34,844 nt of DNA from a virus (lineage: Duplodnaviria > Heunggongvirae > Uroviricota > Caudoviricetes), in IMG/VR virus record IMGVR_UViG_2579778601_000008, positions 1 to 34,844 of that record. One strand, written 5' to 3'. The position numbers were made by a program, and so were the translations under genes. Of the stretch, positions 1 to 34,844 are shown in pieces (the stretch's first letter is position 1; each line of letters begins with the position of its first letter). The notes below the pieces were generated by a model. It was not told the origin of the DNA. It saw only the letters and a program-made list of their open reading frames with translations, and did not search any database.

Positions 1-1011
1 TTATAACGTCACTCCGCCTTTTAGTGGATTCAGAGCGACGGCATTTTGCAGATAGTCAGGCGCAAGGTGCGCATAGGCCATCGTCTGCTGAATGCTCGCA
101 TGTCCCAGAATCTGTTGCAGTGCGATTATATTGCCCCCGTTCATCATGAAATGGCTTGCGAATGTATGCCGCAGGATGTGGGTTGCCTGATTGGGTGGTA
201 TATCAGGTTTCACTCTGCGTAAAATCCCGCAAAATTTCTCATAATCAACTTTGAATAATTTGGCGCTGGCCTCCTCTTTAACTTTTTTCTCCAGTTCCTC
301 AGAAATCGGCACGGTTCGCTTTTTACCGTTTTTGGTTTTCAGGAAGGTAACCCTGCAATTTGTAATCTGTGCTGGTTTTAGCGTGGCAACTTCCGTCCAT
401 CTTCCTCCAGTGCTCAGACATAAAAGCGCGACAAGTAAGTCATCACCAGCCAAAACATTTAACAGTTTTTCGATTTCTGCTTTTTCCAGGAACGTCATTT
501 CAGGGTTGGCCTCCGCCAGTGGCGGCAGTCCGTGAATTGGGTGTTGCCCGGAAAATTCATCCAATTGAATTAATTTTGTGAACATGCCGGATAATCTGTA
601 CATGTCACGGTTTATCGTTGCGGCACTGATACCATCACGTAGTCGCATGGAACGATAATCCATCAAAGCCCTTTTGCTCATCCTGCTCACTGGTATATCA
701 CCTATGCCGCTGATGGTTTTGAGTAGATGATTAAACTCTTTTGTTCCATGCTCGTGGTTTTGCCCGTGATATTTCCACCAGATGTCCAGCAACTCACTCA
801 AAGTCCGGCGGTCTGCTCGCTGGCCTCCCCATTCTTTCTGACTGGCATTGGCGATTGTGTATCGCTCAAATGCTAGTGCTTCAGCTTTTCTTTCGAATTT
901 CCTGCGGATGCGTTTTCCGTCGCGACCGCGAGGTCTAATGTCCACTTCATAGCGACCATCATCGAGCTTCTTAATTGCCATAAGAAAGCCCTCCGGCGCT
1001 GTATTCACCAT
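1..1011 (-). CDS. int: Phage integrase, tyrosine recombinase (P2 Int-like)
   Basis: 336-aa ORF; C-terminal catalytic region ...HILRHTFASHFMMNGGNIIALQQILGHASIQQTMAYAHL... typical of tyrosine recombinases; sits beside the C repressor as in P2. Stop codon is at window positions 1-3, so the gene is complete. Confidence 0.92.
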   Translation of the reverse strand: MVNTAPEGFLMAIKKLDDGRYEVDIRPRGRDGKRIRRKFERKAEALAFERYTIANASQKEWGGQRADRRTLSELLDIWWKYHGQNHEHGTKEFNHLLKTISGIGDIPVSRMSKRALMDYRSMRLRDGISAATINRDMYRLSGMFTKLIQLDEFSGQHPIHGLPPLAEANPEMTFLEKAEIEKLLNVLAGDDLLVALLCLSTGGRWTEVATLKPAQITNCRVTFLKTKNGKKRTVPISEELEKKVKEEASAKLFKVDYEKFCGILRRVKPDIPPNQATHILRHTFASHFMMNGGNIIALQQILGHASIQQTMAYAHLAPDYLQNAVALNPLKGGVTL

Positions 1012-3237: not shown

Positions 3238-3509
3238 GTATTCGTATTGAAATTGGCGAACGTTATGTCGTTACCAGTGACAGCTTTCAGTTTATTCTCC
3301 ACGAGAAAAAGAGAGCGGAAAGCGGTAAAAACGCCGGTCAGGAATGGCTGTCGGTGGTTGGTTATTACCCGAAATTAAGCCAGCTCGTTTCCGGCCTGAT
3401 GCATCACGATATTCTGACCGGAAGCGCAAAGTCTTTTGCTGATTTAAACGTGCAGGTTGAGCAACTCAGCAAGCGTTGTTCAGAGGCTTTTGGCTCATAT
3501 GGCCGTTAA
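3234..3509 (+). CDS. Small early protein (position of P2 orf83)
   Basis: 91-aa ORF; its stop overlaps the start of gene A. Confidence 0.6.
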   Translation: MSIRIEIGERYVVTSDSFQFILHEKKRAESGKNAGQEWLSVVGYYPKLSQLVSGLMHHDILTGSAKSFADLNVQVEQLSKRCSEAFGSYGR

Positions 3510-5775
3510 AGCCTCCGGGCGTTTTGTCCCTCCGTCAGCATTTGCCGCAGGCACCGGTAAGGCGTTTACCGGTGCTTATGCATGGAACGCGCCACGCGAG
3601 GCTGTCGGGCGCGAAAGACCCCTTACACGTGACGAGATGCGTCAGGTGCAAGGGGTTTTATCCACGATTAACCGCCTGCCTTACTTTTTGCGCTCGCTGT
3701 TTACTTCACGCTATGACTACATCCGGCGCAATAAAAGCCCGGTGCACGGGTTTTATTTTCTCACATCCACTTTTCAGCGTCGTTTATGGCCGCGCATTGA
3801 GCGTGTGAATCAGCGCCATGAAATGAACACCGACGCGTCGTTGCTGTTTCTGGCAGAGCGTGGCCATTATGCGCGTCTGCCGGGGATGAATGACAAGGAG
3901 CTGAAAAAGTTTGCCGCCCGTATCTCATCGCAGCTTTTCATGATGTATGAGGAACTCTGCGATGCCTGGGTGGATGCGCATGGCGAAAAAGAATCGCTGT
4001 TTACGGATGAGGCGCAGGCTCACCTCTATGGTCATGTTGCTGGTGCTGCACGTGCTTTCAATATTTCCCCTCTCTACTGGAAAAAATACCGTAAAGGGCA
4101 GATGACCACGAGGCAGGCATATTCTGCCATTGCCCGTCTGTTTAACGATGAGTGGTGGACCCATCAGCTTAAAGGCCAGCGTATGCGCTGGCATGAGGCG
4201 TTACTGATTGCTGTCGGGGAGGTCAATAAAGACCGTTCTCCTTATGCCAGTAAACATGCCATTCGTGATGTGCGTGCACGCCGCCAGGCAAATCTGGAAT
4301 TTCTTAAATCGTGTGATCTCGAAAACAGGGAAACCGGCGAGCGCATCGACCTTATCAGTAAGGTGATGGGCAGTATTTCTAATCCTGAAATTCGCCGGAT
4401 GGAGCTGATGAACACCATTGCCGGTATTGAGCGTTACGCCGCAGCAGAGGGTGATGTGGGGATGTTTATCACGCTGACCGCGCCGTCAAAGTATCACCCG
4501 ACACGTCAGGTCAGAAAAGGCGAAAGTAAAACCGTCCAGCTAAATCACGGCTGGAACGATGAGGCATTTAATCCAAAGGATGCGCAGCGTTATCTCTGCC
4601 GTATCTGGAGCCTGATGCGCACGGCATTCAAGGATAATGATTTACAGGTCTACGGTTTGCGTGTCGTCGAGCCACACCACGACGGAACGCCGCACTGGCA
4701 TATGATGCTTTTTTGTAATCCGCGCCAGCGTAACCAGATTATCGAAATCATGCGTCGCTATGCGCTCAAAGAGGATGGCGACGAAAGAGGAGCCGCGCGA
4801 AACCGTTTTCAGGCAAAACACCTTAACCGGGGCGGTGCTGCGGGGTATATCGCGAAATACATCTCAAAAAACATCGACGGCTATGCACTGGATGGTCAGC
4901 TCGATAACGATACCGGCAGGCCGCTGAAAGACACTGCTGCGGCTGTTACCGCATGGGCGTCAACGTGGCGCATCCCGCAATTTAAAACGGTTGGTCTGCC
5001 GACAATGGGGGCTTACCGTGAACTACGCAAATTGCCGCGCGGCGTCAGCATTGCTGATGAGTTTGACGAGCGCGTCGAGGCTGCACGCGCCGCCGCAGAC
5101 AGTGGTGATTTTGCGTTGTATATCAGCGCGCAGGGTGGGGCAAATGTCCCGCGCGATTGTCAGACTGTCAGGGTCGCCCGTAGCCCGTCGGATGACGTTA
5201 ACGAGTACGAGGAAGAGGTCGAGAGGGTGGTCGGCATTTACGCGCCGCATCTCGGCGCGCGTCATATTCATATCACCAGAACGACGGACTGGCGCATTGT
5301 GCCGAAAGTTCCGGTCGTTGAGCCTTTGACTTTAAAAAGCGGCATCGCCGCGCCTCGGAGTCCTGTCAATAACTGTGGAAAGCTCACCGGTGGTGATACT
5401 TCGTTACCGGCTCCCACACCTTCTGAGCACGCCGCAGCAGTGCTTAATCTGGTTGATGACGATGTTATCGAATGGAATGACCCGGAGGTCGTGAGGGCGC
5501 TCAGGGGCGCATTAAAACACGACCGGAGAACGCCAAACCGTCAGCAAAGAAACGGAAGCCCGTTAAAACCGCATGAAATTGCACCATCGGCCAGACTGAC
5601 CCGGTCGGAACGATTGCAAATTACCCGTATCCGCGTTGATCTCGCTCAGAACGGTATCAGGCCGCAACGATGGGAGCTTGAGGCGCTGGCGCGTGGCGCG
5701 ACCGTAAATTATGACGGGAAACCTTTCACTTATCAGGTCGCTGATGATTGGCCGGGATTTTTGTTACCCATTTGA
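3499..5775 (+). CDS. A: Replication initiation protein A (rolling-circle nicking endonuclease)
   Basis: Start chosen at internal ATG 3499 (MAVKASGRFVPP...), which matches the P2 gpA N-terminus as I recall it; ~758 aa; follows B and the small orfs. Confidence 0.9.
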   Translation: MAVKASGRFVPPSAFAAGTGKAFTGAYAWNAPREAVGRERPLTRDEMRQVQGVLSTINRLPYFLRSLFTSRYDYIRRNKSPVHGFYFLTSTFQRRLWPRIERVNQRHEMNTDASLLFLAERGHYARLPGMNDKELKKFAARISSQLFMMYEELCDAWVDAHGEKESLFTDEAQAHLYGHVAGAARAFNISPLYWKKYRKGQMTTRQAYSAIARLFNDEWWTHQLKGQRMRWHEALLIAVGEVNKDRSPYASKHAIRDVRARRQANLEFLKSCDLENRETGERIDLISKVMGSISNPEIRRMELMNTIAGIERYAAAEGDVGMFITLTAPSKYHPTRQVRKGESKTVQLNHGWNDEAFNPKDAQRYLCRIWSLMRTAFKDNDLQVYGLRVVEPHHDGTPHWHMMLFCNPRQRNQIIEIMRRYALKEDGDERGAARNRFQAKHLNRGGAAGYIAKYISKNIDGYALDGQLDNDTGRPLKDTAAAVTAWASTWRIPQFKTVGLPTMGAYRELRKLPRGVSIADEFDERVEAARAAADSGDFALYISAQGGANVPRDCQTVRVARSPSDDVNEYEEEVERVVGIYAPHLGARHIHITRTTDWRIVPKVPVVEPLTLKSGIAAPRSPVNNCGKLTGGDTSLPAPTPSEHAAAVLNLVDDDVIEWNDPEVVRALRGALKHDRRTPNRQQRNGSPLKPHEIAPSARLTRSERLQITRIRVDLAQNGIRPQRWELEALARGATVNYDGKPFTYQVADDWPGFLLPI

Positions 5776-5992
5776 GTAAAAATACAGCGTGATTTTATAT
5801 GTCTTTGAATGGATTATGCGAAGCACCTCTAAGGTAGATGAGGAGCAATAGCGTGTTGAATCAGAAGGCTAAATTGTATTGAATCGTTAGCATGTAATTG
5901 AAGGCAGCTATTTGATTCGAGTCATAAAAGAGCATCTATTTCGGTTAATAAAACCATTGCGAGTGACTTTATGTCGAAGCATAATTCATCTC

Positions 5993-6006
5993 GAGCGAAG
6001 TCTTGC
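5993..6006. repeat. 14-bp direct repeat GAGCGAAGTCTTGC, copy 1 (preceded by GAGTGACT at 5961)
   Basis: Exact 14-mer recurs at 6257-6270; both copies are preceded by GAGTGACT. Confidence 0.8.
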
Positions 6007-6035
6007 TAGTCTTTCATCGGATTGATGACGGGCGC

Positions 6036-6067
6036 AAAAAAACCACCCTGGCAGGTGGTTTTTTTGT
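6036..6067. terminator. Bidirectional intrinsic terminator
   Basis: GC-rich hairpin (AACCACC..GGTGGTT) flanked by A7 upstream and T7 downstream; lies downstream of gene A (+) and of the small minus-strand ORF. Confidence 0.7.
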
Positions 6068-6077
6068 TTGAAGCATA

Positions 6078-6191
6078 CTAAAGAAAAATACTTACATGGA
6101 TATTACTGACGTTTACTGACAAACCACTCGGACTACCATATGGATAGCCAAAGAGGGCCAGAACGAGAATGCAGTAATAGCACTTCTTCAT
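6078..6191 (-). CDS. Candidate small hydrophobic peptide (37 aa), possible type-I-toxin-like or small membrane protein
   Basis: My own translation, not in the supplied ORF track (below its length cutoff): MKKCYYCILVLALFGYPYGSPSGLSVNVSNIHVSIFL. AGGAGG lies 4 nt upstream of the ATG; the stop codon is directly followed by the intrinsic terminator. Confidence 0.35.
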   Translation of the reverse strand: MKKCYYCILVLALFGYPYGSPSGLSVNVSNIHVSIFL

Positions 6192-6256
6192 ATCGCCTCC
6201 TGTAAGCAGAGGGCAATTTCCGCCGATATATGCGCTTCTAAGGCGGAGTGACTATT

Positions 6257-6270
6257 GAGCGAAGTCTTGC
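6257..6270. repeat. 14-bp direct repeat GAGCGAAGTCTTGC, copy 2 (preceded by GAGTGACT at 6246)
   Basis: Exact match to 5993-6006; the two copies bracket the terminator and the 37-codon ORF. Confidence 0.8.
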
Positions 6271-6912
6271 CCTGAAATAATGCTCTGTTTAAACGCAAAG
6301 TGATCTGGCATATCACCGAACAGAGGACCTGAACAACACAACATATAGTATGTCGTTGTTTCTGGTTGCATTTTATGTTGTGTAATACTGGTTTTGCATC
6401 AAGGATGTTTGAGCTTTTTTTGATATAGCTCAAAGTAAAAAGCAGAGACTACGGATGATAAGGTCTTGAAAGCAATGTAAATTTTTTAAAGTTGTGAGTG
6501 GCTAGAAATGCACAGTTTCAATATGGCGGATTTAAACAAGTAATTAAAAATAGCGACATAAATTCCAATAAAATCATTAAGTTGCGTTTTCTGTGGAAAC
6601 TTCGGTGACTCTGAAATTTTCTTTTAGTGTCGCTGAGGTTTAACAACGCGCTGCGCAAGTAGTTAGTGTTTTTTTAACTCAATATTCTGATTTATAAGGT
6701 TTTTTATAAATCGTGGACTGGTTGCGCGTATTCATCTCGTGTTATCAGCAAAGATAAGCTCTATATGCAGAACGGAATGCATATATGATGTCGAAAATGT
6801 TATGGGAAAACGTGGATTAGTGTTATAGTAATGGCTGAAAAACAGCCTTGACATAAAATAACAACTGTGATATGGCTGTGCATACTTAACTTTTTTAACG
6901 TAGGAGGCAACC

Positions 6913-7398
6913 ATGAGCTATGCAGCTAAAAAACTGCTTGACCGCTATTGGGATCGCCGACTACCTGTCGATCCGTTTAAGCTTGCTAAAGCGTGGGGTG
7001 CTCGTGTTGAAGCACTTGAGGAATCGGCTTATAACAACGATGGGTTAAGCGGTCTGGCTGTCATCAAAAAGGGTGTCCATAGGATTTATTTTGATTCTAG
7101 TGAACATTCTAATCGTCAACGTTTTACTGTTGCACACGAGTTAGGTCATCATGTGCTGGGGCATACCCAGGACGGAGAGTACCATCGGGATAATGTCGGG
7201 AATTATTCAACAGGTGCTCGTGATTACCGTGAGGTTGAAGCAAACAAGTTTGCTGCTGAGTTGTTAATGCCTGAGTCTGCTATACGTCAATTGGTATCCA
7301 GAGAAGGTATTGATAGCACTTTGAGATTAGCAAGCATCTTTAATGTATCAGAAGCCGCTATGCATTGGCGCTTAAAGAGCTTAGGAATGGCTTATTAA
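6913..7398 (+). CDS. ImmA/IrrE-family (DUF955-like) zinc metallopeptidase, no attached HTH domain
   Basis: 161-aa ORF with HEXXH motif in ...FTVAHELGHHVLGH...; AGGAGG 6 nt upstream of the ATG; AT-rich upstream region with TTGACA at 6848. Confidence 0.75.
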   Translation: MSYAAKKLLDRYWDRRLPVDPFKLAKAWGARVEALEESAYNNDGLSGLAVIKKGVHRIYFDSSEHSNRQRFTVAHELGHHVLGHTQDGEYHRDNVGNYSTGARDYREVEANKFAAELLMPESAIRQLVSREGIDSTLRLASIFNVSEAAMHWRLKSLGMAY

Positions 7399-7425
7399 TT
7401 AGCCTTTAACTTTTAACCTGTTTAA

Positions 7426-7462
7426 AATCACCTTTACGTTTGTACATGTAAGGGTGATTTTT
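7426..7462 (+). terminator. Hairpin plus T-tract between the peptidase and membrane-protein genes (possible attenuator or partial terminator)
   Basis: Inverted repeat AAATCACCTTT...AAGGGTGATTT followed by TTTTTT running into the ATG at 7465. Confidence 0.4.
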
Positions 7463-7464
7463 TT

Positions 7465-8064
7465 ATGGCTGATATTGATTTATCTGGACAGTCCCCAGAG
7501 CAAGGAACCACTCCTAAGGGCGATTCAGATCCTGATATCCTTATAAGGCGAGATAGACGGGATGGTATAGAGCGTAGAAGTATGCGATTAGTGCTCTCTG
7601 CCGTTGTGCTTTGTTTTGCTTGTACATTTCTATGGCAGGGGCTTAACTTTGCTTTGGCTGTTGGAAATGGCTTGCTGGAAGCGAAAAGCAGTATTGCCGC
7701 AGCGATAACACAAAAAGTAGATACACAAACTTGTGTTTCAGCAGAAAAATGTTCTGCTTTATCTTCGGATCCGAAGATGGCTGATGAGAGGATAACACCA
7801 TCTTCAGACACTAATAAAGTTAGAAAATCTATTTCTGGTTTATCCACCGATTGGTTATCGGCCAGTTCTCTAATAGCTATTGTTGCATTCATCCTTGGTG
7901 TGGGTTTAACTTTGCTTTTGACTCTTCTTAAATCAGCATTTCAACACCCGACAGATAAAGACTTTAGAACAAAGTCGACATCTAATACTATTGAGTTGGC
8001 CACGCCAATCAGTGAATTAATAATTGGTGTTCTGAATATAATTAAAGACAAACTATCTAAGTAA
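7465..8064 (+). CDS. Predicted two-TM membrane protein of unknown function
   Basis: 199-aa ORF; charged N-terminus (RRDRRDGIERR); hydrophobic segments LVLSAVVLCFACTFLWQGLNFALAV and SLIAIVAFILGVGLTLLLTLL; two Cys in the intervening loop; amphipathic C-terminus; co-oriented with the peptidase gene. Confidence 0.6.
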   Translation: MADIDLSGQSPEQGTTPKGDSDPDILIRRDRRDGIERRSMRLVLSAVVLCFACTFLWQGLNFALAVGNGLLEAKSSIAAAITQKVDTQTCVSAEKCSALSSDPKMADERITPSSDTNKVRKSISGLSTDWLSASSLIAIVAFILGVGLTLLLTLLKSAFQHPTDKDFRTKSTSNTIELATPISELIIGVLNIIKDKLSK

Positions 8065-8146
8065 AGCATTAGTTGTGATTTTTTATTGGTTTTAGTGATA
8101 ATACATCTCCAGTACTTATTGTTACTGGAGAGTATTTTTAGTCGTT

Positions 8147-9088
8147 TTATATTTTTAATGTTAGTGAATGATATTCACGAGAGTTCACGTTCGATGTGAT
8201 GTAATCGGGGGCGTTAACACCAAGAATCGCAACGAGTAATCGGCAAATTAAAGCCTGCATTTGTTGTAATATGTCATCTCCATATTGATAATTGTTAATA
8301 GTGGTAAAGCCAAGTGGTTGACCATGAAACATAGCTTCATGAAAGTTTTCATTGCGGATGTTTGTAATGTTTTTTTTGCCTGTAACCCATGATGGTCGTG
8401 GTATTCCATAAGTTTTGCAGATCCACTTCAAGCGCCTGGAGTGATTTAGAGTCTTTTCTGTACACTTGTTCTTTTCTGCCCATGTTAAAGCAAAGCAACT
8501 ATCCAGTGCCATATAAAGATACTGGAATTTTTCGAAGCTAAGGTATTGTGGGTTTTGGGATAAAAATAGTGCATGCACTATTGCTGCTATATTTATTGGT
8601 GCGTGTTTGGTTTTTGTCTCGCTAGACATGTATTTGAGTGCTAATTCTATAACCTCTTTTTCAGAGCACTTGACCAGAATAAAGTCAGTTAATTTGCTGG
8701 GTTTTATTGGGGTTGCGTCTAAAAAACCGGCATCAGTAGTTGTTAATCTTATCCCTTTGAAAAAAGACAGACACCACACAGCAAAATTGAGAGTTTCTAG
8801 TGAAGATGTATTTTTTAATTTTAGTGAGTGTGTTTTGGGTAAGCCAAATACTCGTTGGCTAAAAGGCATTGTGGATATGCCTCCATTGAGGTTATATACT
8901 TCTTGGTTTCCTGGGTATATCCAACCGTTAATAACATTTCTGTGATTGTTTATAAGATTTGTTTTTTCCGCTAGACCGGGTAAAGTAAGTAAAGAAAAAT
9001 CATCAGTTTCAACGTTAACTTCTACTGGATAGTATCCAAACTCAGCTTCAATATCATTGGATTGCTGTTCGTCAACTTTACCTTGCAT
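8147..9088 (-). CDS. Hypothetical 313-aa protein with RNxxxH motif (possible HEPN-type nuclease)
   Basis: Long ORF in a markedly AT-rich stretch, convergent with the two upstream genes; GGAG 6 nt upstream of ATG; motif RNENFH near residue 245; no P-loop or HEXXH seen. Confidence 0.65.
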   Translation of the reverse strand: MQGKVDEQQSNDIEAEFGYYPVEVNVETDDFSLLTLPGLAEKTNLINNHRNVINGWIYPGNQEVYNLNGGISTMPFSQRVFGLPKTHSLKLKNTSSLETLNFAVWCLSFFKGIRLTTTDAGFLDATPIKPSKLTDFILVKCSEKEVIELALKYMSSETKTKHAPINIAAIVHALFLSQNPQYLSFEKFQYLYMALDSCFALTWAEKNKCTEKTLNHSRRLKWICKTYGIPRPSWVTGKKNITNIRNENFHEAMFHGQPLGFTTINNYQYGDDILQQMQALICRLLVAILGVNAPDYITSNVNSREYHSLTLKI

Positions 9089-9326
9089 ACATTGCTCCGG
9101 TCAAAAATAGGCTCGATAATTCTCGTAAGCCTATCATGTTCGCAAAGTATCCATACCTGTGGATTTTGTAAATTTAAGTTGATTTGTCATTAAATAAGCC
9201 GTTGCATGCAACAAGTGAATGTTTTTGCATGCGTCGGGGATGTCCGTTCAGGCTGCGTGCGGTCAGGACTGGTGCGGATCCATAGTATCTATGCAACTGC
9301 ATTAAAACCGCCCCATGAAGCGGGCG

Positions 9327-9345
9327 GGCGAGGCGGGGAAAGCAC
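9327..9345. other. cos (cohesive end site) of P2-type phage
   Basis: GGCGAGGCGGGGAAAGCAC matches the 19-nt P2 cohesive end as I recall it; located just upstream of the portal gene Q. Confidence 0.7.
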
Positions 9346-9486
9346 TGCGCGCTGGCGGTGGTGCTGATTTTATTTTTTCAGCGTCTGAGCGCGTCGTGAT
9401 GGCGTTTAGATTGTTAGCCGGGGCGTTGGTGTGTCTGCGGGCTATTTTGTGCGGTGGTGAGCGTGTGAGGGCGTGATGGCGGGTTG

Positions 9487-9510
9487 TAAAAAAGCCGCCC
9501 GCAGGCGGCG
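9487..9510 (-). terminator. Intrinsic terminator downstream of Q (minus strand)
   Basis: Hairpin GCCGCC-CGCA-GGCGGC followed, on the minus strand, by a T6 run immediately after the Q stop. Confidence 0.6.
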
Positions 9511-9514
9511 ATAT

Positions 9515-10549
9515 TCAGCCGTTGTCAGTGTCCAGTGAGTAGTTTTTAAAGCGGATGACCTCCTGACCGAGCCAGCCGTTTATCTCGCGGATCCTGTCCT
9601 GTAGCGGGATAAGCTCATTGCGGACAAAGACCTTTGCCACTTTCTCAATATCACCCAGCGACCCGACGTTCTCCGGCTTGCCGCCCATCAACTGAAAGGG
9701 GATGCGGTGCGCGTCCAGCAGGTCAGCGGCGCTGGCTTTTTTGATATTAAAAAAATCGTCCTTCGTTGCCACTTCACTGAGCGGGATAATTTTGATGCCG
9801 TCGGCTTTCCCCTGTGGGGCATAGAGAAACAGATTTTTAAAGTTGTTGCGGCCTTTCGACTTCACCATGTTTTCGCGGAGCATTTCGATATCGTTGCGAT
9901 CCTGCACGGCATCGGTGACGTACATGATGTATCCGGCATGAGCACCGTTTTCGTAATACTTGCGGCGGAACAGCGTGGCTGATTCATTCAGCCAGGCAGA
10001 GTTAAGGGCGCTGAGATATTCCGGCAGGCCGTACAGCTCCTGATTAATATCCGGCTCCAGCAGGTGAAACACGGAACCGGGCGCGAAGGCTGTCGGTTCG
10101 TTGAAGGACGGCACCCACCAGTAAACATCCTCCTCCACGCCACGGCGGGTATATTTTGCCGGTGAGGTTTCCAGTCTGATGACCTTACCGGTGGTGCTGT
10201 AACGCTTTTCCAGAAACGCATTACCGAACACCAGAAAATCCAGCACAAAGCGGCTGAAATCCTGCTGGGACAGCCACGGATGCGGGATAAATGTCGAGGC
10301 CAGAATATTACGTTTGACGTAAATCGGTGAGCTGTGATGCACGGCAGCACGCAGGCTTTTTGCCAGACCAGTAAAGCTGACCGGTGGTTCATACCATCTG
10401 CCGTTACTGATGCACTCGACGTAATCCAGAATGTCACGGCGGTCGAGTACCGGCACCGGCTCACCAAAGGTGAATGCTTCCATTTTCGGGGCGCTGGCGG
10501 TCATTTTTTTTGCCGCAGGTTGCTGTGTTTTCCCTTTTTTCTTGCTCAT
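9515..10549 (-). CDS. Q: Portal protein (capsid portal vertex)
   Basis: 344-aa ORF; length and sequence agree with P2 gpQ as I recall it; start ATG overlaps the P stop (ATGA). Confidence 0.92.
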   Translation of the reverse strand: MSKKKGKTQQPAAKKMTASAPKMEAFTFGEPVPVLDRRDILDYVECISNGRWYEPPVSFTGLAKSLRAAVHHSSPIYVKRNILASTFIPHPWLSQQDFSRFVLDFLVFGNAFLEKRYSTTGKVIRLETSPAKYTRRGVEEDVYWWVPSFNEPTAFAPGSVFHLLEPDINQELYGLPEYLSALNSAWLNESATLFRRKYYENGAHAGYIMYVTDAVQDRNDIEMLRENMVKSKGRNNFKNLFLYAPQGKADGIKIIPLSEVATKDDFFNIKKASAADLLDAHRIPFQLMGGKPENVGSLGDIEKVAKVFVRNELIPLQDRIREINGWLGQEVIRFKNYSLDTDNG

Positions 10550-21187: not shown

Positions 21188-23806
21188 ATGAGCACGAAAT
21201 TTAAAACCGTTATCACTACTGCCGGAGCCGCGAAGCTGGCAGCCGCTACTGTTCCCGGCGGGAAAAAAGTAAACCTGTCTGCAATGGCTGTGGGTGACGG
21301 TAATGGCCAATTGCCGGTGCCGGATGCCGGTCAGACGAAACTGGTGCATGAAGTCTGGCGTCACGCTCTGAATAAAGTCAGTGTGGATAACAAGAATAAA
21401 AACTATATCGTGGCTGAACTGGTTGTTCCGCCAGAAGTGGGCGGCTTCTGGATGCGTGAGCTTGGTCTGTATGATGATGCCGGAACACTGATTGCGGTAT
21501 CCAACATGGCAGAAAGCTATAAGCCAGAACTGGCTGAAGGCTCCGGACGTGCGCAGACCTGCCGCATGGTTATTATTCTCAGTAACGTGGCGTCCGTTGA
21601 GCTGAGTATTGATGCCAGCACAGTGATGGCGACGCAGGATTACGTCGATGACAAAATCGCAGAGCATGAGCAGTCCCGCCGCCATCCTGACGCCACACTG
21701 ACAGAAAAAGGTTTTACTCAGTTAAGCAGTGCAACAAACAGCACCAGTGAGTCATTGGCGGCAACGCCAAAAGCGGTCAAGGCAGCAAATGACAACGCAA
21801 ATTCACGTCTGGCGAAAAATCAGAATGGTGCAGATATCCAGAATAAATCAGCTTTTCTGGAAAATGTTGGCGTTACCAGCCTGACGTTTATGAAAAACAA
21901 TGGCGAAATGCCGCTTGATGCTGATCTGAATACATTTGGTCCTGTTAAGGCTTATTCAGGTATCTGGTCTAAAGCAACATCCACCAACGCAACACTGGAG
22001 AAAAATTTCCCTGAAGACGGTGCAGTCGGTGTGCTTGAGGTATTCAATGGCGGTAATTTTGCAGGAATGCAGCGTTATACCACCAGAACAGGCAATGTTT
22101 ATATGCGCAACCTTTCTGGCACCTGGAATGGCTCAGACGGTCCGTGGAGCTACTGGCGTCAGATTCAGTCAGCAACACGCCCCCTGAGTACAACCATTGA
22201 CCTGAACACGCTCGGAGGCGCAGAGCATCTTGGCTTATGGCGAAACAGTAGTGGCTCTATCGCTTCATTTGACCGCAACTATCCGGAAGAAGGAAGTTAT
22301 GGTCAGGGACTCCTTGAAGTTCTTGAAGGTGGTGGGTACTCACGCATGCAACGCTACACGACCCGCCGTGGGGATGTATATGTTCGCTGCCTTTCTGCTA
22401 CATGGAATGCAGAGAATCCACAGTGGGAACCGTGGTTAAGAGTCGGTCATCAGTCAGAGAGTCGTTATTACGACGGGGATTTGAATGATGTGACTTCACC
22501 AGGTATTTACAGCGTTACAGGTAAAGCGACCAACGGTCCAATACTGGACGGAAACGGCGTGACAGTCCTCGGGATTCTGGAAGTGTTGAGGCGCTTTGAT
22601 GGTGTTAACGTATGGCAGCGTTATACAACTGCCGGAACAGGTGCAACCCTTAAAGGTCGCACGTTTGAGCGCGTCTATACCGGCAGCTCGTGGAGCGAAT
22701 GGCGGGAAGTCTACACCTCGTATTCACTTCCCCTGAATCTGGGTATCGGCGGTGCTGTGGCAAAGCTCACCAGCATGGACTGGCAGACCTACGACTTTGT
22801 GCCGGGCAGTCTGATAACCGTTCGGCTTGATAACATGACCAACATTCCCGACGGTATGGACTGGGGCGTCATTGATGGCAACCTGATAAACATCGCAGTG
22901 GGTCCGAGTGATGATTCCGGTACGGGGCGCTCAATGCATGTATGGCGCAGCACCGTAAGTAAAGCGAACTACCGCTTTTTTATGGTGCGTATTTCAGGAA
23001 ATCCGGGAAGTCGCACGATCACCACAAGACGTGTGCCAATCATTGACGAAGCCCAGACATGGGCGGCGAAACAAACCTTCAGCGCCGGTCTTTCAGGCGA
23101 ACTGTCCGGCAATGCTGCTACAGCAACAAAGCTGAAAACGGCAAGGACAATTAACGGCGTAAAATTTGACGGCTCGGCAAATATTGAAGCGTTTCCGCCA
23201 GGTGTTCCGCTGCCGTGGCCATCAGATACACCACCTGCAGGCTATGCAATTATGCAGGGGCAGACGTTTGATAAGGCTGCATATCCGAAACTGGCTATTG
23301 CCTATCCTTCTGGTGTTATTCCAGATATGCGCGGCTGGACAATCAAGGGCAAACCCGCCAGTGGGCGTGCCGTATTGTCACAGGAACAGGACGGGATTAA
23401 ATCGCATACTCACAGCGCCAGTGCGTCAAATACGGATTTAGGGACGAAAACGACCAGTTCATTTGATTACGGCACGAAGACAGTCAGTACGTTTAACTAC
23501 GGAACAAAAACCACTAATACCACAGGTAACCATACACATACCATTTACAGAGGGAATGCCAATACTAATGGTGAAACCGGTAAAACAGGCTTTGACAACC
23601 CATCGTTTAATGGCACATCAGGAGCTGCCGGGAATCATGCCCACACGGTAGATATTGGCGCACATAATCATACGGTTGGTATTGGTGCACATTCACACAC
23701 GGTTGCTATTGGCTCACACGGGCACTCTATTACCGTTAATGCTACAGGTAATACCGAAAACACCGTCAAAAACATCGCATTTAACTATATTGTGAGGCTT
23801 GCATAA
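21188..23806 (+). CDS. H: Tail fibre protein H (conserved N-terminus, divergent extended distal part)
   Basis: 872-aa ORF; N-terminus [25 protein letters not shown]... is P2 gpH-like; three tandem ~85-aa repeats in the middle; His-rich GxHxH repeats near the C-terminus. Confidence 0.9.
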
Positions 23807-24384
23807 TGGCTTTCAGAATGAGTGCAGAAGCACAAACTATCCACGTATTTAATTTACTTGATGGAACCAATGAATTTATTGGGGAAAGTGACGCATATAT
23901 CCCACCGTACACTGGCCTGCCTGCAAACAGTACAGATATTGCACCACCTGATATTCCAGCTGGTTATGCAGCCGTTTTCAATGCAGACGAAATGAAATGG
24001 GAACTGATGGAAGACCATCGCGGAAAGACTGTCTACGAAACGAAAACGGGAGCAGCCATTTATATTTCTGAACTTGGCGTATTACCTCCAGACGTGACAG
24101 CCATTTCCCCGGATGGGGATTATCAGAAATGGAACGGCAATGCGTGGGTGAATGATGAGAATGCAGAGCGTGATGCGCTTGTCAGAGCGGCGGAGTCTCA
24201 GAAGAAAGAGCAGATTGCATATGCAGGTGAAATCATTGCCACGCTGCAGGATGCTGTCGATTTAGATATGGCTACCGAGGAAGAAAAGTTAAGTCTGACA
24301 CACTGGAAAAAATACCGTGTGTTACTGAATCGCGTTCAGCCGGAAAATGCCCCGGATATTGAATGGCCGGAACTACCGCAATAA
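23806..24384 (+). CDS. G: Tail fibre assembly chaperone (Tfa-like)
   Basis: 192-aa ORF starting at the H stop; resembles Tfa-family tail fibre assembly proteins. Confidence 0.85.
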
Positions 24385-24388
24385 ACAC

Positions 24389-24418
24389 AGGCGGGCTGAT
24401 TGCCCGCCTTTTCTTTAC
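24389..24418 (+). terminator. Intrinsic terminator after G
   Basis: Hairpin AGGCGGGC-TGAT-TGCCCGCCT followed by a T-rich tract. Confidence 0.65.
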
Positions 24419-24516
24419 CGGTGGTTGTGCTGTTGATTAGCCAACCGGGACAAATAGCCTGACATCTCCGGCACAACTGAAAATACCACTCACCCATTAA
24501 CCACGGAGTTAAACGG

Positions 24517-25707
24517 ATGAGTGATTATCATCACGGCGTGCAGGTGCTGGAGATTAACGACGGCACCCGCGTCATTTCCACCGTATCAACCGCCATTGTC
24601 GGCATGGTCTGCACAGCCAGCGATGCGGATGCGGAAACCTTCCCCCTCAATAAACCGGTGCTGATTACCAATGTGCAGAGCGCAATTGCAAAGGCCGGTA
24701 AAAAAGGCACGCTGGCGGCGTCGTTGCAGGCCATCGCTGACCAGTCCAAACCGGTCACCGTTGTCGTGCGTGTTGAAGACGGCACAGGCGACGACGAAGA
24801 AACGAAACTCGCGCAGACCGTTTCCAATATCATCGGCACCACCGACGAAAACGGTCAGTACACCGGACTGAAAGCCCTGATGGGGGCTGAGTCGGTTACC
24901 GGCGTTAAACCGCGCATTCTTGGTGTGCCGGGGCTGGACACCAAAGAGGTTGCCGTCGCACTGGCATCGGTATGCCAGGAACTGAATGCATTCGGGTATA
25001 TCAGCGCATGGGGCTGTAAAACCATTTCCGAGGTGAAAGCCTACCGCCAGAATTTCAGCCAGCGTGAGCTGATGGTTATCTGGCCGGATTTCCTCGCATG
25101 GGATACGGTCACCAGTACCACCGCCACCGCGTATGCCACCGCCCGTGCGCTGGGGCTGCGCGCTAAAATCGACCAGGAGCAGGGCTGGCATAAAACGCTG
25201 TCCAATGTCGGGGTAAACGGTGTTACCGGCATCAGTGCATCTGTATTCTGGGATTTGCAGAAGTCTGGCACTGATGCTGACCTGCTGAACGAGGCAGGCG
25301 TCACAACGCTGGTTCGCCGCGACGGTTTCCGTTTCTGGGGTAACCGTACCTGCTCCGATGACCCACTGTTCCTCTTTGAAAGCTACACACGCACTGCGCA
25401 GGTACTGGCCGACACGATGGCTGAGGCGCACATGTGGGCTATTGATAAGCCCATCACCGCAACGCTGATTCGCGACATCATTGACGGCATCAATGCCAAA
25501 TTCCGCGAACTGAAAAACAACGGTTATATCGTGGATGGCACATGCTGGTTCAGTGAAGAATCCAACGATGCGGAAACCCTCAAGGCCGGAAAACTGTATA
25601 TCGACTACGACTATACCCCGGTGCCTCCCCTCGAAAACCTGACCCTGCGCCAGCGTATTACTTCAAGATACCTGGCAAGTCTGGTCACCTCGGTTAACAG
25701 CAATTAA
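24517..25707 (+). CDS. FI: Contractile tail sheath protein
   Basis: 396-aa ORF at the P2 FI position. Confidence 0.92.
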   Translation: MSDYHHGVQVLEINDGTRVISTVSTAIVGMVCTASDADAETFPLNKPVLITNVQSAIAKAGKKGTLAASLQAIADQSKPVTVVVRVEDGTGDDEETKLAQTVSNIIGTTDENGQYTGLKALMGAESVTGVKPRILGVPGLDTKEVAVALASVCQELNAFGYISAWGCKTISEVKAYRQNFSQRELMVIWPDFLAWDTVTSTTATAYATARALGLRAKIDQEQGWHKTLSNVGVNGVTGISASVFWDLQKSGTDADLLNEAGVTTLVRRDGFRFWGNRTCSDDPLFLFESYTRTAQVLADTMAEAHMWAIDKPITATLIRDIIDGINAKFRELKNNGYIVDGTCWFSEESNDAETLKAGKLYIDYDYTPVPPLENLTLRQRITSRYLASLVTSVNSN

Positions 25708-26797: not shown

Positions 26798-26882
26798 TGC
26801 GTATTACCGTGAAGGAGATCGGTGAGTAACATCGATGGAGATCGGTTCGTGTCACTTTCACAGAACCGTTTTTAAATTACCT

Positions 26883-27632
26883 TCACTGATCTCCTTCGGT
26901 CAACGGAGATTGTATTTTCCGCATTGATTCTCCTTTAAGTTCGATCTTGATACTGCCATGAACCAGTCGATCTAGGATGGCATCCGCATGTGTGGAGTCT
27001 CCGATCATTTTGTACCAGTTTTCCACCGGCAACTGGCTCACTACGATGATTGAGCCTCGTTGGTACATCAGATCCACTATTTCCAGCAGGTCGCTACGCT
27101 GTTCTGATGAGAGAGGTTCCAGCCCCCAGTCATCCAGAAGCAGCAGATCGCTATTATTCAGCCTGGTCAAAAGTTTGCTGTATCTTCCATCAGCATGCCC
27201 CTGATAGCACTGTTCCATCAGCGCTTTAAGGCGATAATAGTAGACCTTGTATCCCTGTCGGCAGGCATTATGACCAAGTGCACATGCCAGGAACGTTTTA
27301 CCGCTGCCGGTGGCCCCGGTCAGTAAAATATTTTGTTTCAGGGTTAACCAGTTTCCCTGACTGAGTGAACGGATGAGGGCCCTGTCCAGCCCTCTATTGT
27401 TACGATAATCCAGCTTTGATAACTCAGCATTAAGTCTGAACCGTGCATGTTTGATCAGACGCTCTGCCTTCCTGTTTTCACGGCAGGTTAGTTCTTCTGC
27501 TGTCAGTAATGACAGGCGTTCTTCGAAGCCCAGCTCCTGGTATGTGCCCGGTTGAGCAAGTTGCTTTTTAAGCGCATCACGGAAGCCGGTGAGTTTAAGT
27601 GCGGTCAGTTGTTCGTAAAGATGATTCATCAT
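26883..27632 (-). CDS. istB: IS21-family helper ATPase IstB
   Basis: 249-aa ORF with Walker A (GATGSGKT) and Walker B (LLLLDDWG) motifs, typical of IstB. Confidence 0.9.
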   Translation of the reverse strand: MMNHLYEQLTALKLTGFRDALKKQLAQPGTYQELGFEERLSLLTAEELTCRENRKAERLIKHARFRLNAELSKLDYRNNRGLDRALIRSLSQGNWLTLKQNILLTGATGSGKTFLACALGHNACRQGYKVYYYRLKALMEQCYQGHADGRYSKLLTRLNNSDLLLLDDWGLEPLSSEQRSDLLEIVDLMYQRGSIIVVSQLPVENWYKMIGDSTHADAILDRLVHGSIKIELKGESMRKIQSPLTEGDQ

Positions 27633-27643
27633 TGGATCCCGTA

Positions 27644-29185
27644 TCAGTGGTAATACTCACTGCCGCGTACGTTTTCGTGTTCCATCGTGGATAACAGATC
27701 TGGTTTTGGATCCTGAACAGGTTGTTTATCCAGACCTTTTTCCAGGATCGATTTAATACCTGACAGACGCCATACCTTTGTTTTCAGAGCTCTTGCACAT
27801 GCTGCATTAAGTCTGGCTTTACTGTATTTTTTATGAAGGTTCAGGAGTCCAAGGCAGAAGCGATAGCTTTGTTCCGGATGTGGACGAGAGTTCAGTATAT
27901 GAAGCACATAACTATGAGTTTCACTGCCTATGTGCCCCGCCCATTCCAGAAGACGCTCTGGCGTCCAGGTGGCATGCTGTCGATGAGCTTCAGGCATGTG
28001 CTCGTTGCGGGTACTGTAGCCATAAGTACGCTTGCGCGGGTGCACAGCAACCTCCTGCCCCTGATTGAAGAGTCTTACCAGTTCTCCGGAGATCCATGCT
28101 TCCAGTTGCTGGCCTAACAGCGAACATGGAACCGAGTAGTAATGTTTGTCGATTTCCACGTGGTAATCGGCATGAACTCTGACTTTCTTCACCAGGGTGT
28201 AACTGTAACTGGCTTCAGGAAGAGGCTTCAGTGCGGGTTTATCAAGCTGGATGAAGAGTTCTGCACGTGAATAACCCAACTTCTGCATTATTTTGTTATT
28301 CAGTCTTTCCAGCAACTCCCGAATGCGCTGATTAAGCGATGCAAGGCTGTAGAAGATCTCATGCCTGATTCGGGCCATGATCCAGCGTTCAACAACCTGA
28401 ACGCCAACTTCAGCTTTGGCTTTATCTTTCGGTTTACGTGGCCGCGCAGGCAAAACTGCGACATTATAATGCTCAAGCATCTGCTGGTAGGTAGGGTTAA
28501 CGTCAGGATCATACTTACATGCCCTGGATGTGGCGCTTTTCAGATTGTCCGGAACAACAAGTTCAGGAACGCCACCCAACCACTGGAAGCAGCGAACATG
28601 ACTCATCACCCAGTCTTCAAGCTGCTGAGACCAGGTGGCCTCTGCCCATGTGTAACTTGATGCCCCGAGAACAGCTACGATGACCTGAGCAGTTCTTATT
28701 TCTCCGGTCTCAGGGTCGGTAACGCCAACGGTAGGTCCACAGTAATCAACGAAAAGTTTTTCGCCAGCTTTATGTACCTGACGCATTGATGGTGAAGTGG
28801 TTTTGAGCCATTCACGGTACATCCGGCAGTAATGGTTATAGCTGTAAAAACCGCCTGGATTACGCTCACAGTATTCTTCCCAGAGTAGCTGCAGCGTCAC
28901 GCATTTATTACGCAGTTCCCGGTGTACTGTAGCCCAGTCAGGCAGAGAGTGCTTCTTCATCTTAACCTGGGTCTGAAGGAACGCATGTTTTAGTTTTGTA
29001 TCATCCCATCCTGTAGGTAAGGGCCACTGCTTTATGCCAAGTTGAGCCGCCCGATTAGCATATCTGGATACAACGGAAGGGGAGATTGCAAGACTACGAC
29101 CAATTTGTCGATGGCTGAGTCCAACACCGTATTTAAGCCTAAGAATTTCTTTAAGTTTTCTCATAGAAATTGGAACTGTTGGCAT
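27644..29185 (-). CDS. istA: IS21-family transposase IstA
   Basis: 513-aa ORF with an N-terminal HTH and DDE-type integrase core, immediately upstream of istB. Confidence 0.9.
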   Translation of the reverse strand: MPTVPISMRKLKEILRLKYGVGLSHRQIGRSLAISPSVVSRYANRAAQLGIKQWPLPTGWDDTKLKHAFLQTQVKMKKHSLPDWATVHRELRNKCVTLQLLWEEYCERNPGGFYSYNHYCRMYREWLKTTSPSMRQVHKAGEKLFVDYCGPTVGVTDPETGEIRTAQVIVAVLGASSYTWAEATWSQQLEDWVMSHVRCFQWLGGVPELVVPDNLKSATSRACKYDPDVNPTYQQMLEHYNVAVLPARPRKPKDKAKAEVGVQVVERWIMARIRHEIFYSLASLNQRIRELLERLNNKIMQKLGYSRAELFIQLDKPALKPLPEASYSYTLVKKVRVHADYHVEIDKHYYSVPCSLLGQQLEAWISGELVRLFNQGQEVAVHPRKRTYGYSTRNEHMPEAHRQHATWTPERLLEWAGHIGSETHSYVLHILNSRPHPEQSYRFCLGLLNLHKKYSKARLNAACARALKTKVWRLSGIKSILEKGLDKQPVQDPKPDLLSTMEHENVRGSEYYH

Positions 29186-29378
29186 AGGTATCCTTTACCG
29201 GAATGGCAAAAGATACAGATCAACACACCTGTGAAGTTCCAATAACATTGATGGAGATCACTGAATAACAAAATGAGTCAAAAGTGATCTCCATCGATGT
29301 TATTCAGCGATCTGTTCAAATGTTATTACCCGATCTCGATGGAAGTTATTGAGTGATCTCCTTTCATGAAAATACGCA

Positions 29379-33860: not shown

Positions 33861-33941
33861 ATCCTCAATTTGCCTGCTGCTTAATGCATTGCAGATGATT
33901 TGCTTCCGTTATACTACCGTCAGTTGATAGCGGGAGTATTT

Positions 33942-34844
33942 ATGAATCAATCTTATGGACGGCTGGTCAGTCGGGCGGCGATTGCTGCGACGGCGATGGC
34001 TTCGCTGCTATTGCTGATTAAAATTTTTGCATGGTGGTATACCGGGTCGGTGAGTATTCTCGCCGCGCTGGTGGATTCGCTGGTGGATATCGGTGCGTCG
34101 TTGACGAATTTACTGGTGGTGCGATATTCCCTGCAACCTGCCGACGATAATCACTCGTTTGGTCACGGTAAAGCTGAGTCCCTCGCGGCGCTGGCGCAAA
34201 GTATGTTTATCTCCGGTTCGGCACTATTCCTGTTTTTGACGGGTATTCAACATCTGGTATCTCCAACACCGATGACAGATCCAGGCGTCGGGGTTATCGT
34301 GACAATTGTGGCGCTAATTTGTACGATTATCCTTGTCTCGTTTCAGCGTTGGGTGGTGCGCCGGACGCAAAGCCAGGCGGTGCGGGCTGATATGCTACAT
34401 TACCAGTCTGATGTTATGATGAACGGCGCAATTCTGCTGGCGCTGGGGTTGTCCTGGTACGGCTGGCATCGCGCCGATGCTCTGTTTGCATTGGGGATCG
34501 GCATCTATATTTTATATAGCGCGTTACGCATGGGATATGAGGCGGTACAGTCATTACTGGATCGCGCATTGCCTGATGAGGAACGGCAAGAAATTATTGA
34601 TATCGTGACTTCCTGGCCGGGTGTTAGCGGCGCTCACGATCTTCGCACGCGGCAGTCAGGGCCGACCCGCTTTATTCAGATTCATTTGGAAATGGAAGAC
34701 TCTCTGCCTTTGGTTCAGGCACATATGGTGGCGGATCAGGTAGAGCAGGCTATTTTACGGCGTTTTCCGGGATCGGATGTGATTATCCATCAGGACCCCT
34801 GTTCCGTCGTACCCAGGGAGGGTAAACGGTCTATGCTTTCATAA
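33942..34844 (+). CDS. fieF: Host cation-efflux pump FieF/YiiP (cation diffusion facilitator)
   Basis: Start at [35 protein letters not shown]...; ~300 aa with multiple TM helices and a C-terminal cytoplasmic domain; matches enterobacterial FieF as I recall it. Confidence 0.85.

Follow-up and report, generated by a model that had tools for sequence, protein, structure and literature searches.

Three modules with separate distributions occupy the A-to-cos hotspot of a P2-like prophage

The 34,844-nucleotide virus record IMGVR_UViG_2579778601_000008 (Caudoviricetes), analysed over its whole length and referred to here as the window, represents a P2-like prophage. In order, it comprises an integrase gene (1–1011, minus strand), C/cox, the early operon, replication gene A, the interval up to cos, Q, P and the late genes, and a host cation-efflux gene (33900–34844) forms its right end. 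The subject of this work is the interval between gene A and cos, which contains three protein genes: an ImmA/IrrE-family (Peptidase_M78) metalloprotease, a protein with two transmembrane (TM) segments, hereafter the 2TM protein, and a stand-alone two-domain protein named ORF313. To their left lies a semi-conserved block, module L, with a small hydrophobic open reading frame (ORF) and a candidate small RNA (sRNA). Coordinates are collected in Table 1.

Both borders of the interval are well defined. The gene A product is 97.9% identical to P2 gpA over 754 aa, from residue 15 of the ORF onwards (BLASTP against the proteins of NC_001895). The mechanically called ORF begins at a TTG, 14 codons before the similarity to gpA (3457–3498), and the true start of gene A is probably the ATG at 3499. 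On the opposite side, the 19-nt right cohesive end of P2 (GGCGAGGCGGGGAAAGCAC) is found at 9327–9345, within a segment (9298–9345) that is 97.9% identical to the P2 right end, and is followed by the portal gene Q (9515–10549, minus strand) and then by terminase P. With the stop of A at 5775 and cos at 9327, positions 5776–9326 are exactly the A-to-cos interval, as the original prediction had placed it.

The composition of the interval differs from that of the backbone. Its G+C (GC) content is 0.389, compared to 0.542 in 9327–34844, and the GC content at third codon positions is 0.29–0.36 in the three protein genes, compared to 0.56–0.70 in A, Q and P; the AT-richness claimed for this segment in the original prediction was thus upheld in both composition and codon usage. 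The claim that the three genes do not resemble tin or old also held, since no ORF product of the interval resembles P2 Orf91, Tin or Old (BLASTP against NC_001895, all matches at E≥0.27) and PADLOC returned no tin or old match among the interval proteins. Terminators had been noted as well, and terminator-like hairpins are indeed enriched (8 observed, 2.9±1.4 in shuffled sequences), those of note being at 6035–6066, 7424–7461 and 8106–8131. Twelve direct repeats were reported, and the exact 14-mer GAGCGAAGTCTTGC at 5993 and 6257 is the sole one among them to exceed chance expectation.

To describe the distribution of the individual parts, they were searched against 5,426 complete E. coli genomes. 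Module L, together with the stretch upstream of the protease gene (query 5776–6912), was found in 150 genomes, mostly with only the first ~765–840 nt matching. The protease and 2TM genes (query 6620–8100) were found in 50 genomes, and ORF313 (query 8100–9175) in 98, about half of them at less than 80% identity. The whole interval is present at a coverage of at least 80% in 46 genomes and in Salmonella phage MET_P1_103_31. The hotspots of NCTC9040 and strain 504838 are empty, with an A-Q interval of only ~1.1 kb and no annotated gene, and consist of the left ~770–840 nt of the interval fused straight to the cos-proximal backbone (window ~9176–9514). Comparison with these two strains places the inserted cargo at ~6600–9175. 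Phage P2DC1 shares only 5776–7487. The left neighbours of ORF313 are different in P2-EC67 (AM157369), where the protein received its name, in P2-like phages of Yersinia and in a prophage with genes for CII-, Fil- and DinI-like proteins; in a further case it lies beside IS2.

The interval is therefore a mosaic of three modules with separate distributions and not one cassette. A single system moving as a unit could be proposed from the co-occurrence of the three protein genes at ≥99% identity in ~46 complete E. coli genomes and in MET_P1_103_31, and from the recurrent arrangement of Peptidase_M78 (WP_000119270), a hypothetical protein (WP_001161722) and a third hypothetical protein in Table S5A of Rousset et al. 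(PMC9122126). Such a unit is very improbable, however, given that roughly half of the 98 genomes with ORF313, as well as phages in which it has different neighbours, lack the protease and 2TM genes, that ORF313 stands alone in Aeromonas, that the protease and 2TM genes lack ORF313 in P2DC1, TA280, Serratia, plasmids, Aeromonas and Klebsiella, and that the 2TM gene and ORF313 are convergent with a bidirectional terminator between them. The discrete swappable cassette considered in the original prediction was accordingly abandoned. Moreover, the left ~825 bp (module L) are no swappable cargo of the usual kind and persist in gene-free hotspots.

Table 1. Features of the A-to-cos interval and its borders (window coordinates).
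Feature	Position	Strand	Details
Replication gene A (left hotspot border)	3499..5775	+	ORF 3457–5775 compared to P2 gpA
Module L, semi-conserved block	5776..6600	.	150/5,426 genomes; GC 0.383
Promoter-like site of candidate sRNA	5957..5985	+	TTGCGA-17-CATAAT; promoter scan
Candidate ~75-nt sRNA, antitoxin-like	5992..6068	+	Fold, repeat, ends at bidirectional terminator
14-nt repeat, copy 1	5993..6006	+	GAGCGAAGTCTTGC; at predicted sRNA 5' end
Bidirectional intrinsic terminator	6035..6066	.	13-bp perfect stem flanked by A and T runs; invariant in four sequences (window, P2DC1, NCTC9040, 504838)
Hydrophobic small ORF, 37 aa	6078..6191	-	MKKCYYCILVLALFGYPYGSPSGLSVNVSNIHVSIFL; Shine-Dalgarno (SD) sequence AGGAGG 5 nt before ATG
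Conserved long 5' untranslated region (UTR) and promoter-like region of small-ORF mRNA	6192..6493	-	TTTACA 6481–6476, TATCAT 6460–6455; conservation ends at ~6493
14-nt repeat, copy 2	6257..6270	+	Complement of sRNA 5' end on minus-strand mRNA
Promoter-like site upstream of protease gene	6848..6876	+	TTGACA, 17 nt, TGnTATGGC; by reading the sequence
ImmA/IrrE-family (Peptidase_M78) zinc metalloprotease, 161 aa, without helix-turn-helix (HTH)	6913..7398	+	Pfam PF06114, E=3.8e-21
Intergenic hairpin + U7, terminator/attenuator, abutting 2TM-gene ATG	7424..7464	+	SD in 3' arm; fold −23.6 kcal/mol, z=−4.9
2TM protein, 199 aa	7465..8064	+	Start 66 nt downstream of protease gene
Convergent bidirectional terminator-like hairpin between 2TM gene and ORF313	8106..8131	.	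9-bp stem, both strands
ORF313, stand-alone two-domain protein, 313 aa	8147..9088	-	N-terminal beta-rich domain; C-terminal helical HEPN-like domain with R245-N246-x3-H250-E251
Ribosome-binding site (RBS) and promoter-like sites of ORF313	9089..9190	-	RBS GGAG; promoter-like 9190–9163 and 9104–9075
Cos-proximal backbone (right border)	9176..9345	.	Joined to module L in empty hotspots; cohesive end 9327–9345

The most informative feature of the central part of the interval is the predicted RNA element between the protease and 2TM genes, which resembles an intrinsic terminator and abuts the start codon of the second gene. The SD sequence of the 2TM gene, GGUG(A/G), lies inside the 3' arm of the hairpin. 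The same succession of hairpin, U7 and AUG is seen in six loci, namely the window, P2DC1, Serratia, an Enterobacter plasmid, a Mu-like prophage of Aeromonas and a Klebsiella prophage, although the stems themselves are compensatory or wholly different between loci (AAAUCACCUUUAC.., AAUCACCAUUA.., AAAUCACCAUCAU.., AAAGCCACC..). The conserved layout identifies position 7465 as the true start of the 2TM gene. A terminator that doubles as an SD trap suggests that the membrane protein is to be kept scarce relative to the protease, and a scarce membrane protein beside a protease is what would be expected of a toxic effector and its neutraliser.

The protease retains the motifs HELGHHVLGH and EANKFAAELLMP, with the HExxH intact, and corresponds to PHROG 87 ('metallo-protease') and RefSeq WP_000119270. 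Its matches in PADLOC are confined to the peptidase part; the best is capP (E=1e-30), followed by sixteen RmrA profiles, the best of these at 6e-17. The match to capP spans positions 8–153 of the 242-position profile, the C-terminal part being missing, while the RmrA matches begin at ~141–215 and cover ~146–290 of 357–400 positions. No HTH was found in the protein with Pfam. An HTH partner of the CapH or ImmR type was likewise sought in 6600–6912, downstream, and beside the homologous protease genes of Serratia, plasmid, Aeromonas and Klebsiella loci, and was not found. The protease was the only one of the three proteins recognised by PADLOC, one of the checks suggested in the original prediction, which yielded nothing for the other two. 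The promoter-like site upstream of the gene is kept in the P2DC1 allele; the Serratia and plasmid loci do not keep it and share no more than the RBS AACGTAGGAGGCAACCATG. The window and P2DC1 alleles (4136–4621 in the latter) share 87.6% protein identity with saturated synonymous sites (dS ~2), and the ratio of nonsynonymous to synonymous substitution rates (dN/dS) is 0.04. Old alleles that are very strongly constrained thus reside in a mobile locus that looks young.

The 2TM protein (PHROG 8096, function unknown) has hydrophobic segments at residues 38–66 and 126–160. An alignment of 17 homologues defines a common layout. A conserved N-terminal MAxxDLSG sequence is followed by a proline-rich linker, the length of which varies greatly, by the basic sequence RRDxRDxxERR and by TM1; next come a loop with two conserved cysteines, a near-invariant TM2 (DWLSASSLIAIVAFILGVGLTL) and a conserved amphipathic C-terminal tail. 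The 2TM gene always lies 3' of the 161-aa protease gene, on the Serratia chromosome, on Enterobacter plasmids and in Aeromonas and Klebsiella prophages, with hhalign probabilities of 99.8% and 99.6% for the Aeromonas and Klebsiella partners. A protein next to a short ImmA homologue in P. aeruginosa was considered as a further member and rejected; its layout is similar, and homology was not demonstrable (hhalign probability 4%).

The surroundings of the pair vary. The Enterobacter plasmid pairs lie near Zeta-toxin and DprA-like genes, and the Aeromonas pair is located between the mor and lysis genes of a Mu-like prophage. The Serratia pair occupies a region between phn and nrdDG, where, ~1.8 kb downstream, a 223-aa gene is followed by a 371-aa gene with HTH_3 and Peptidase_M78 domains, resembling a RosmerTA pair; two M78-based modules hence stand side by side in one variable region. 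The Klebsiella pair lies at the end of a prophage with an HP1_ORF34-family gene, directly beside a cation-efflux gene and pfk. Since a cation-efflux gene also marks the right end of the window, the pair sits elsewhere in a related prophage.

We favour the view, by analogy, that the protease and 2TM proteins form a Rosmer-like module of a protease and a membrane effector. ImmA domains act as hub antitoxins with swappable, sometimes membrane-active toxins in RosmerTA-type defence (Ernits 2023, PMC10440598), and related systems with an Xre-HTH and M78 peptidase antitoxin include RosmerTA itself (Millman 2022; PMC10440598) and PD-Lambda-2B (PMC9519451). The likeness to RosmerTA (RmrT/RmrA) lies in the M78/ImmA zinc-peptidase domain and in its pairing with an unrelated, often membrane-active partner. 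The present pair differs from RosmerTA in that the protease lacks the N-terminal Xre-type HTH, the partner is a specific conserved 2TM family, the protease gene comes first, and an attenuator separates the genes. It is not a member of RosmerTA in the strict sense, as the HTH is missing. The protease also shares the M78 fold and HExxH with CapP/CapH, regulators of cyclic-oligonucleotide-based antiphage signalling systems (CBASS), and with ImmA/ImmR of ICEBs1, CapP being the best PADLOC match. However, the locus has neither a CapH- or ImmR-type HTH neighbour nor a CBASS.

An alternative is that the pair controls the prophage lifestyle or excludes superinfecting phages and is neither a defence nor a toxin-antitoxin (TA) system. 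The protease might be an anti-repressor, as in ICEBs1 or CapP, or the membrane protein might block DNA entry or modulate lysis. ImmA and CapP proteases are indeed best known as repressor-cleaving regulators; the short ImmA homologue of the P. aeruginosa prophage directly follows an S24 CI-type repressor, the Aeromonas pair lies between mor and lysis genes, and the homologue cloned as pFR104 (see below) is not among the systems validated with a panel of eight phages. However, no HTH gene adjoins the protease in any locus examined, and no regulated operon, such as CBASS or the lytic genes of a phage or an integrative and conjugative element, was found with it; the only co-inherited gene is that of the 2TM protein (Serratia, plasmid, Aeromonas and Klebsiella loci). 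Moreover, the pair moves as a unit outside prophages, on plasmids and in the Serratia chromosomal island, so that the substrate or partner is most simply the co-inherited 2TM protein, and the double lock of a terminator and a buried SD is typical of a toxic product. We regard lifestyle control or exclusion as unlikely, and prefer the protease/membrane-effector module.

ORF313 is transcribed leftward from the cos side, in the same orientation as the P2 old-tin genes, whose transcript begins near cos, and the corresponding position in AM157369 carries an RBS annotation. Its family is large, with 603 matches in a word-indexed search and 650 clusters at 50% identity in an exhaustive search; nearly all members have ~290–325 aa, and they are found in Enterobacterales, Aeromonas, Acinetobacter, Pseudomonas and Stenotrophomonas. 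The Aeromonas veronii homologue is located alone between housekeeping genes, and a P. aeruginosa homologue lies in an island beside Gabija (OLD-like TOPRIM ATPase and UvrD helicase). A dN/dS of ~0.15 indicates that ORF313 is maintained.

Residues W56, H87, G112, E186, R245, H250, G260 and R283 are invariant in 44 ORF313 sequences with identities down to 26%, and N246 is nearly so. The RNxxxH(E) motif of the family matches the Rx4-6H pattern of HEPN domains. An AlphaFold2 model built with the 44-sequence alignment (predicted local distance difference test, pLDDT, 92.5; predicted template-modelling score, pTM, 0.91) divides into an N-terminal half rich in beta structure and a C-terminal half made up of helices only, of which helix 241–250 carries the motif. 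HEPN models of Pfam (e.g. HEPN_Apea, PF18739) matched none of 24 members and one of 44, the latter at E=0.15. A sequence profile search of the PDB gave only spurious matches to ribonucleotide-reductase R2, which were discarded, and Foldseek found nothing at E≤0.001 in the PDB or BFVD with a model earlier than the one described above. We estimate the chance of a HEPN-type fold at about two-thirds. ORF313 is probably a HEPN-type ribonuclease with its own sensor domain and, as such, a single-gene candidate for abortive infection. Compared to HEPN ribonucleases of known defence systems (Csm6/Csx1, the C-terminal HEPN of AbiA, HEPN-MNT toxins and Apea-like HEPN), it lacks a Pfam HEPN match and a partner antitoxin gene, and its N-terminal beta-rich domain, with the invariant W56 and H87, has no recognised relative.

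Module L, in which no gene is annotated in RefSeq, remains in hotspots without any annotated gene (NCTC9040 and 504838). Only about four alleles exist, with 86–100% identity; a scan of viral contigs for diverged copies gave the same four, and a distant BLASTN search against phages added nothing. Conservation among them is far higher in 5976–6495 than in 5776–5935, and the former segment is the most conserved part of the interval. The short ORF mentioned in the original prediction has a coding signature: besides its strong SD, the third codon position takes nine of 13 substitutions among alleles and the second takes none (P=0.009), the stop is kept as TAG or TAA, and all five peptide variants have 37 aa. 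Residues 3–18 form a hydrophobic segment. Well over 1,000 public contigs (at least 970 with this variant and 757 with another) have the ORF called as a hypothetical protein, and a full-text search for the peptide sequence found no paper. It can be viewed as a candidate type I toxin or a small membrane or secreted peptide.

The candidate sRNA has a predicted fold of −31.9 kcal/mol (z=−5.0). Across alleles, the −10 element of its promoter-like site is invariant, with one change in the −35 element and four in the spacer. Its first 14 nt (GAGCGAAGUCUUGC) equal the plus strand at 6257–6270, so the sRNA 5' end is complementary to the minus-strand 5' UTR, 66–79 nt upstream of the AUG. A core of 12–13 nt of the 14-mer is retained in all alleles; copy 1 differs at a single site (6006, C to T), where the pairing would persist as G-U, and 6256–6295 contains one variable site in 40. 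Shuffling produced a repeat of ≥14 nt in 5 of 2000 cases for module L and in 90 of 2000 for the whole interval. The predicted duplex of the sRNA with the minus-strand mRNA has an energy of −40.1 kcal/mol, compared to −28.3±3.0 in shuffles, none of 500 being as good. The promoter hexamers of the small-ORF mRNA were identified by eye. An 81-aa ORF (6433–6188), whose stop overlaps the small-ORF ATG (ATGA), was considered as a coupled upstream gene and rejected, as it has a 2-nt indel in one allele and substitutions spread 7/7/8 over the codon positions; since it is not coding, the ~250 nt of conserved sequence is best read as 5' UTR.

Type I TA pairs with trans-pairing sRNAs include TisB/IstR-1, ZorO/OrzO and ShoB/OhsC, and 3'-overlapping pairs include TxpA/RatA and BsrG/SR4; Salmonella TimP/TimR is a further example. 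Module L looks like such a pair, one that combines a trans-pairing seed with a 3' overlap. As in known pairs, there is a hydrophobic ORF of fewer than 40 codons (a small, <60 aa, gene under selection), a long 5' UTR, a neighbouring candidate small RNA, a short perfect complementarity far upstream of the RBS, and predicted convergent transcripts with a common terminator. Module L differs from them in having no sequence or Rfam match and in the signal-peptide-like character of its peptide. A search of Rfam at E≤1 over 5500–9600 gave only sub-threshold chance matches (RNAI, mir-644, Phe leader and P9), and none of family level for the candidate sRNA.

A different account of module L assigns the hairpin at 6035–6066 to termination of the early (A) operon, treats the 14-mers as a protein-binding site or a recombination scar, and takes the 37-aa ORF as a small lysogenic-conversion peptide, membrane-bound or secreted, or as unexpressed. 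The early operon does need a terminator after A, and this hairpin is the first one; the missing Rfam family, the weak minus-strand promoter, the possible signal peptide and the small number of alleles also fit this account, and for the same reasons the type I TA reading stays a prediction. On the other hand, the small ORF has a coding signature and a fixed length, the ~500 nt of conservation coincide with predicted promoters and transcripts and not just with the terminator, and the 14-mer, of a length rare in shuffles, lies exactly at the predicted sRNA 5' end. We consider this account possible, though doubtful, and keep the type I TA-like pair as the preferred reading. Many P2-like prophages with a ~1.1-kb, gene-free A-Q interval still hold module L with its small ORF and candidate sRNA, and hotspots scored as empty may therefore not be blank.

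The A-cos locus itself is well known. Its variability in P2-like phages was described by Odegrip et al. 2006, as cited in PMC9122126 and PMC9519451, and the 'TO' region was established as a defence hotspot by Rousset et al. 2022 (PMC9122126) and Vassallo et al. 2022 (PMC9519451). The present interval resembles the TO hotspot in its location between gpA and cos/gpQ, its low GC content and the alternative contents of close relatives, in line with the original prediction of a known variable hotspot. It resembles the tin/old locus in having one gene, ORF313, that reads leftward from the cos side, and differs from it in the absence of any sequence relation to Orf91, Tin and Old and in the left 825 bp, which are a semi-fixed resident. 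Expression in the lysogen would be consistent with the promoter-like and RBS sequences and with the analogy to the leftward old-tin transcript of P2.

According to a 2026 preprint on P2 and P4 elements, the defence loci of 19% of P2 elements contain nothing but unknown genes, and 15–32% of unknown P2 proteins are predicted to be antiviral; the cargo proteins of the window are not listed in its supplements. A domain-centric screen published in Nucleic Acids Research in 2026 mentions neither M78 nor HEPN. The homologous hotspot of E. coli TA280 was cloned by Rousset et al. (PMC9122126) as pFR104, 'Peptidase + TM' (Table S2B). The insert comes from the same hotspot and starts at the A stop, and hence includes module L. 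Its protease and TM protein are 88% and 54% identical to those of the window. The pFR104 TM protein is a different allele, annotated from an internal Met (159 aa, '1 TM'), whereas the conserved start lies 39 codons upstream and the full protein has two hydrophobic segments.

The explanation towards which we lean, with slightly better than even confidence, is that the interval is the known TO hotspot in which three independently acquired low-GC modules replace orf91-tin-old, with the following roles. In module L, a minus-strand mRNA with a long 5' UTR would encode the 37-aa hydrophobic peptide, and the convergent plus-strand sRNA of ~75 nt, sharing its terminator, would repress the peptide by pairing of its 5' end with 13–14 nt of the 5' UTR. 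The 2TM gene would be throttled by the terminator hairpin, which reaches up to the start codon and holds the SD sequestered. The protease would neutralise or process the membrane effector, with the conserved cytoplasmic N-terminus of the latter as a possible target, until the balance is upset by infection or stress; the freed effector might then cause membrane damage (abortive infection) or exclusion. ORF313 would combine an N-terminal putative sensor with a C-terminal RNxxxH ribonuclease of the HEPN type that cleaves RNA upon a trigger, in the manner of abortive-infection systems. An anti-phage role of the cargo is plausible by association.

Several observations weigh against this explanation. 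Within module L, the minus-strand promoter is weak, with a 15-nt spacer, the hydrophobic stretch of ~13–16 aa is as signal-peptide-like as it is membrane-toxin-like, and the existence of only about four alleles precludes a covariation test. The 2TM protein has no match in Pfam, NCBIfam or PADLOC and no defence annotation, and ORF313 with its sets of 24 and 44 homologues gave nothing usable in Pfam, NCBIfam, PADLOC or PHROGs. The construct pFR104 appears only under 'additional tested systems' and not among the validated ones, while three other P2 systems are named as active (PMC9122126); with a panel of eight phages, tested in E. coli K-12, the negative is weak, yet it is the sole experimental datum. 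Finally, the insertion sequence (IS) of the IS21 family in the tape-measure gene marks a decaying prophage and is silent on the function of the cargo.

This element occupies 26798–29376 and encodes an IstA-like protein of 513 aa (27644–29185, minus strand) and an IstB of 249 aa (26883–27632, minus strand). It sits ~83 nt into tape-measure gene T, where 7 bp of target sequence (P2 19926–19932) are duplicated in comparison with P2, and the prophage copy in the window is probably tail-defective. Among strains with an identical cassette, the interval of CUWW10 (NZ_CP182145.1, 2278–7166) is interrupted by the IS4-like ISVsa5, and gene A of S65EC is annotated as frameshifted; both features are signs of prophage decay around intact cargo. 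The insertion in T, the frameshift in S65EC and the IS in the cassette region of CUWW10 could be extended to the idea that the cargo is itself decaying junk in a defective prophage. We find this extremely improbable, because all three ORFs are intact and under purifying selection (dN/dS 0.04–0.15, the lower value for the protease), they belong to wide families with invariant catalytic-type residues, and the regulatory hairpin is conserved.

What we take, partly from Vassallo et al. 2022, to be the second accessory hotspot of P2, Z/fun, is located between tail-fibre assembly gene G and sheath gene FI. It appears empty in the window, with ~130 nt (24384–24517) between a G-like ORF (23806–24384) and an FI-like ORF (24517–25707).

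As the TO hotspot is well documented, the finding of non-P2 cargo in it adds little by itself. The new points are the resolution of the interval into three modules, the conserved attenuator and the wider protease/2TM family, the RNxxxH family of ORF313, and the TA-like block in 'empty' hotspots. It is possible, though on balance unlikely, that at least one new system exists among a type I TA family represented by module L, a module of an HTH-less ImmA protease with a 'DLSG' 2TM protein that is widespread in prophages (P2-like and Mu-like) and Enterobacter plasmids, and a single-gene HEPN abortive-infection family represented by ORF313. Module L would then be semi-permanent at the A-proximal edge of the hotspot and unknowingly part of earlier clones, and the protease would gate a tightly attenuated membrane effector whose trigger lies outside the eight-phage panel.

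The value of the analysis lies in a list of parts with which three uncharacterised modules can be put to a direct test. Conservation of the protease/2TM pair extends from P2-like prophages to those of the Mu type and to plasmids, and the lock on its second gene points to a toxic effector. The 650-cluster RNxxxH family of ORF313 is missed by current defence finders, and ~3% of complete E. coli genomes contain an unannotated type I TA-like block, which is present even in hotspots that had been scored as empty. Should one of the modules prove active, the catalogue of defence and TA systems would be extended, and 'empty' or 'negative' P2 hotspots would not be blank.

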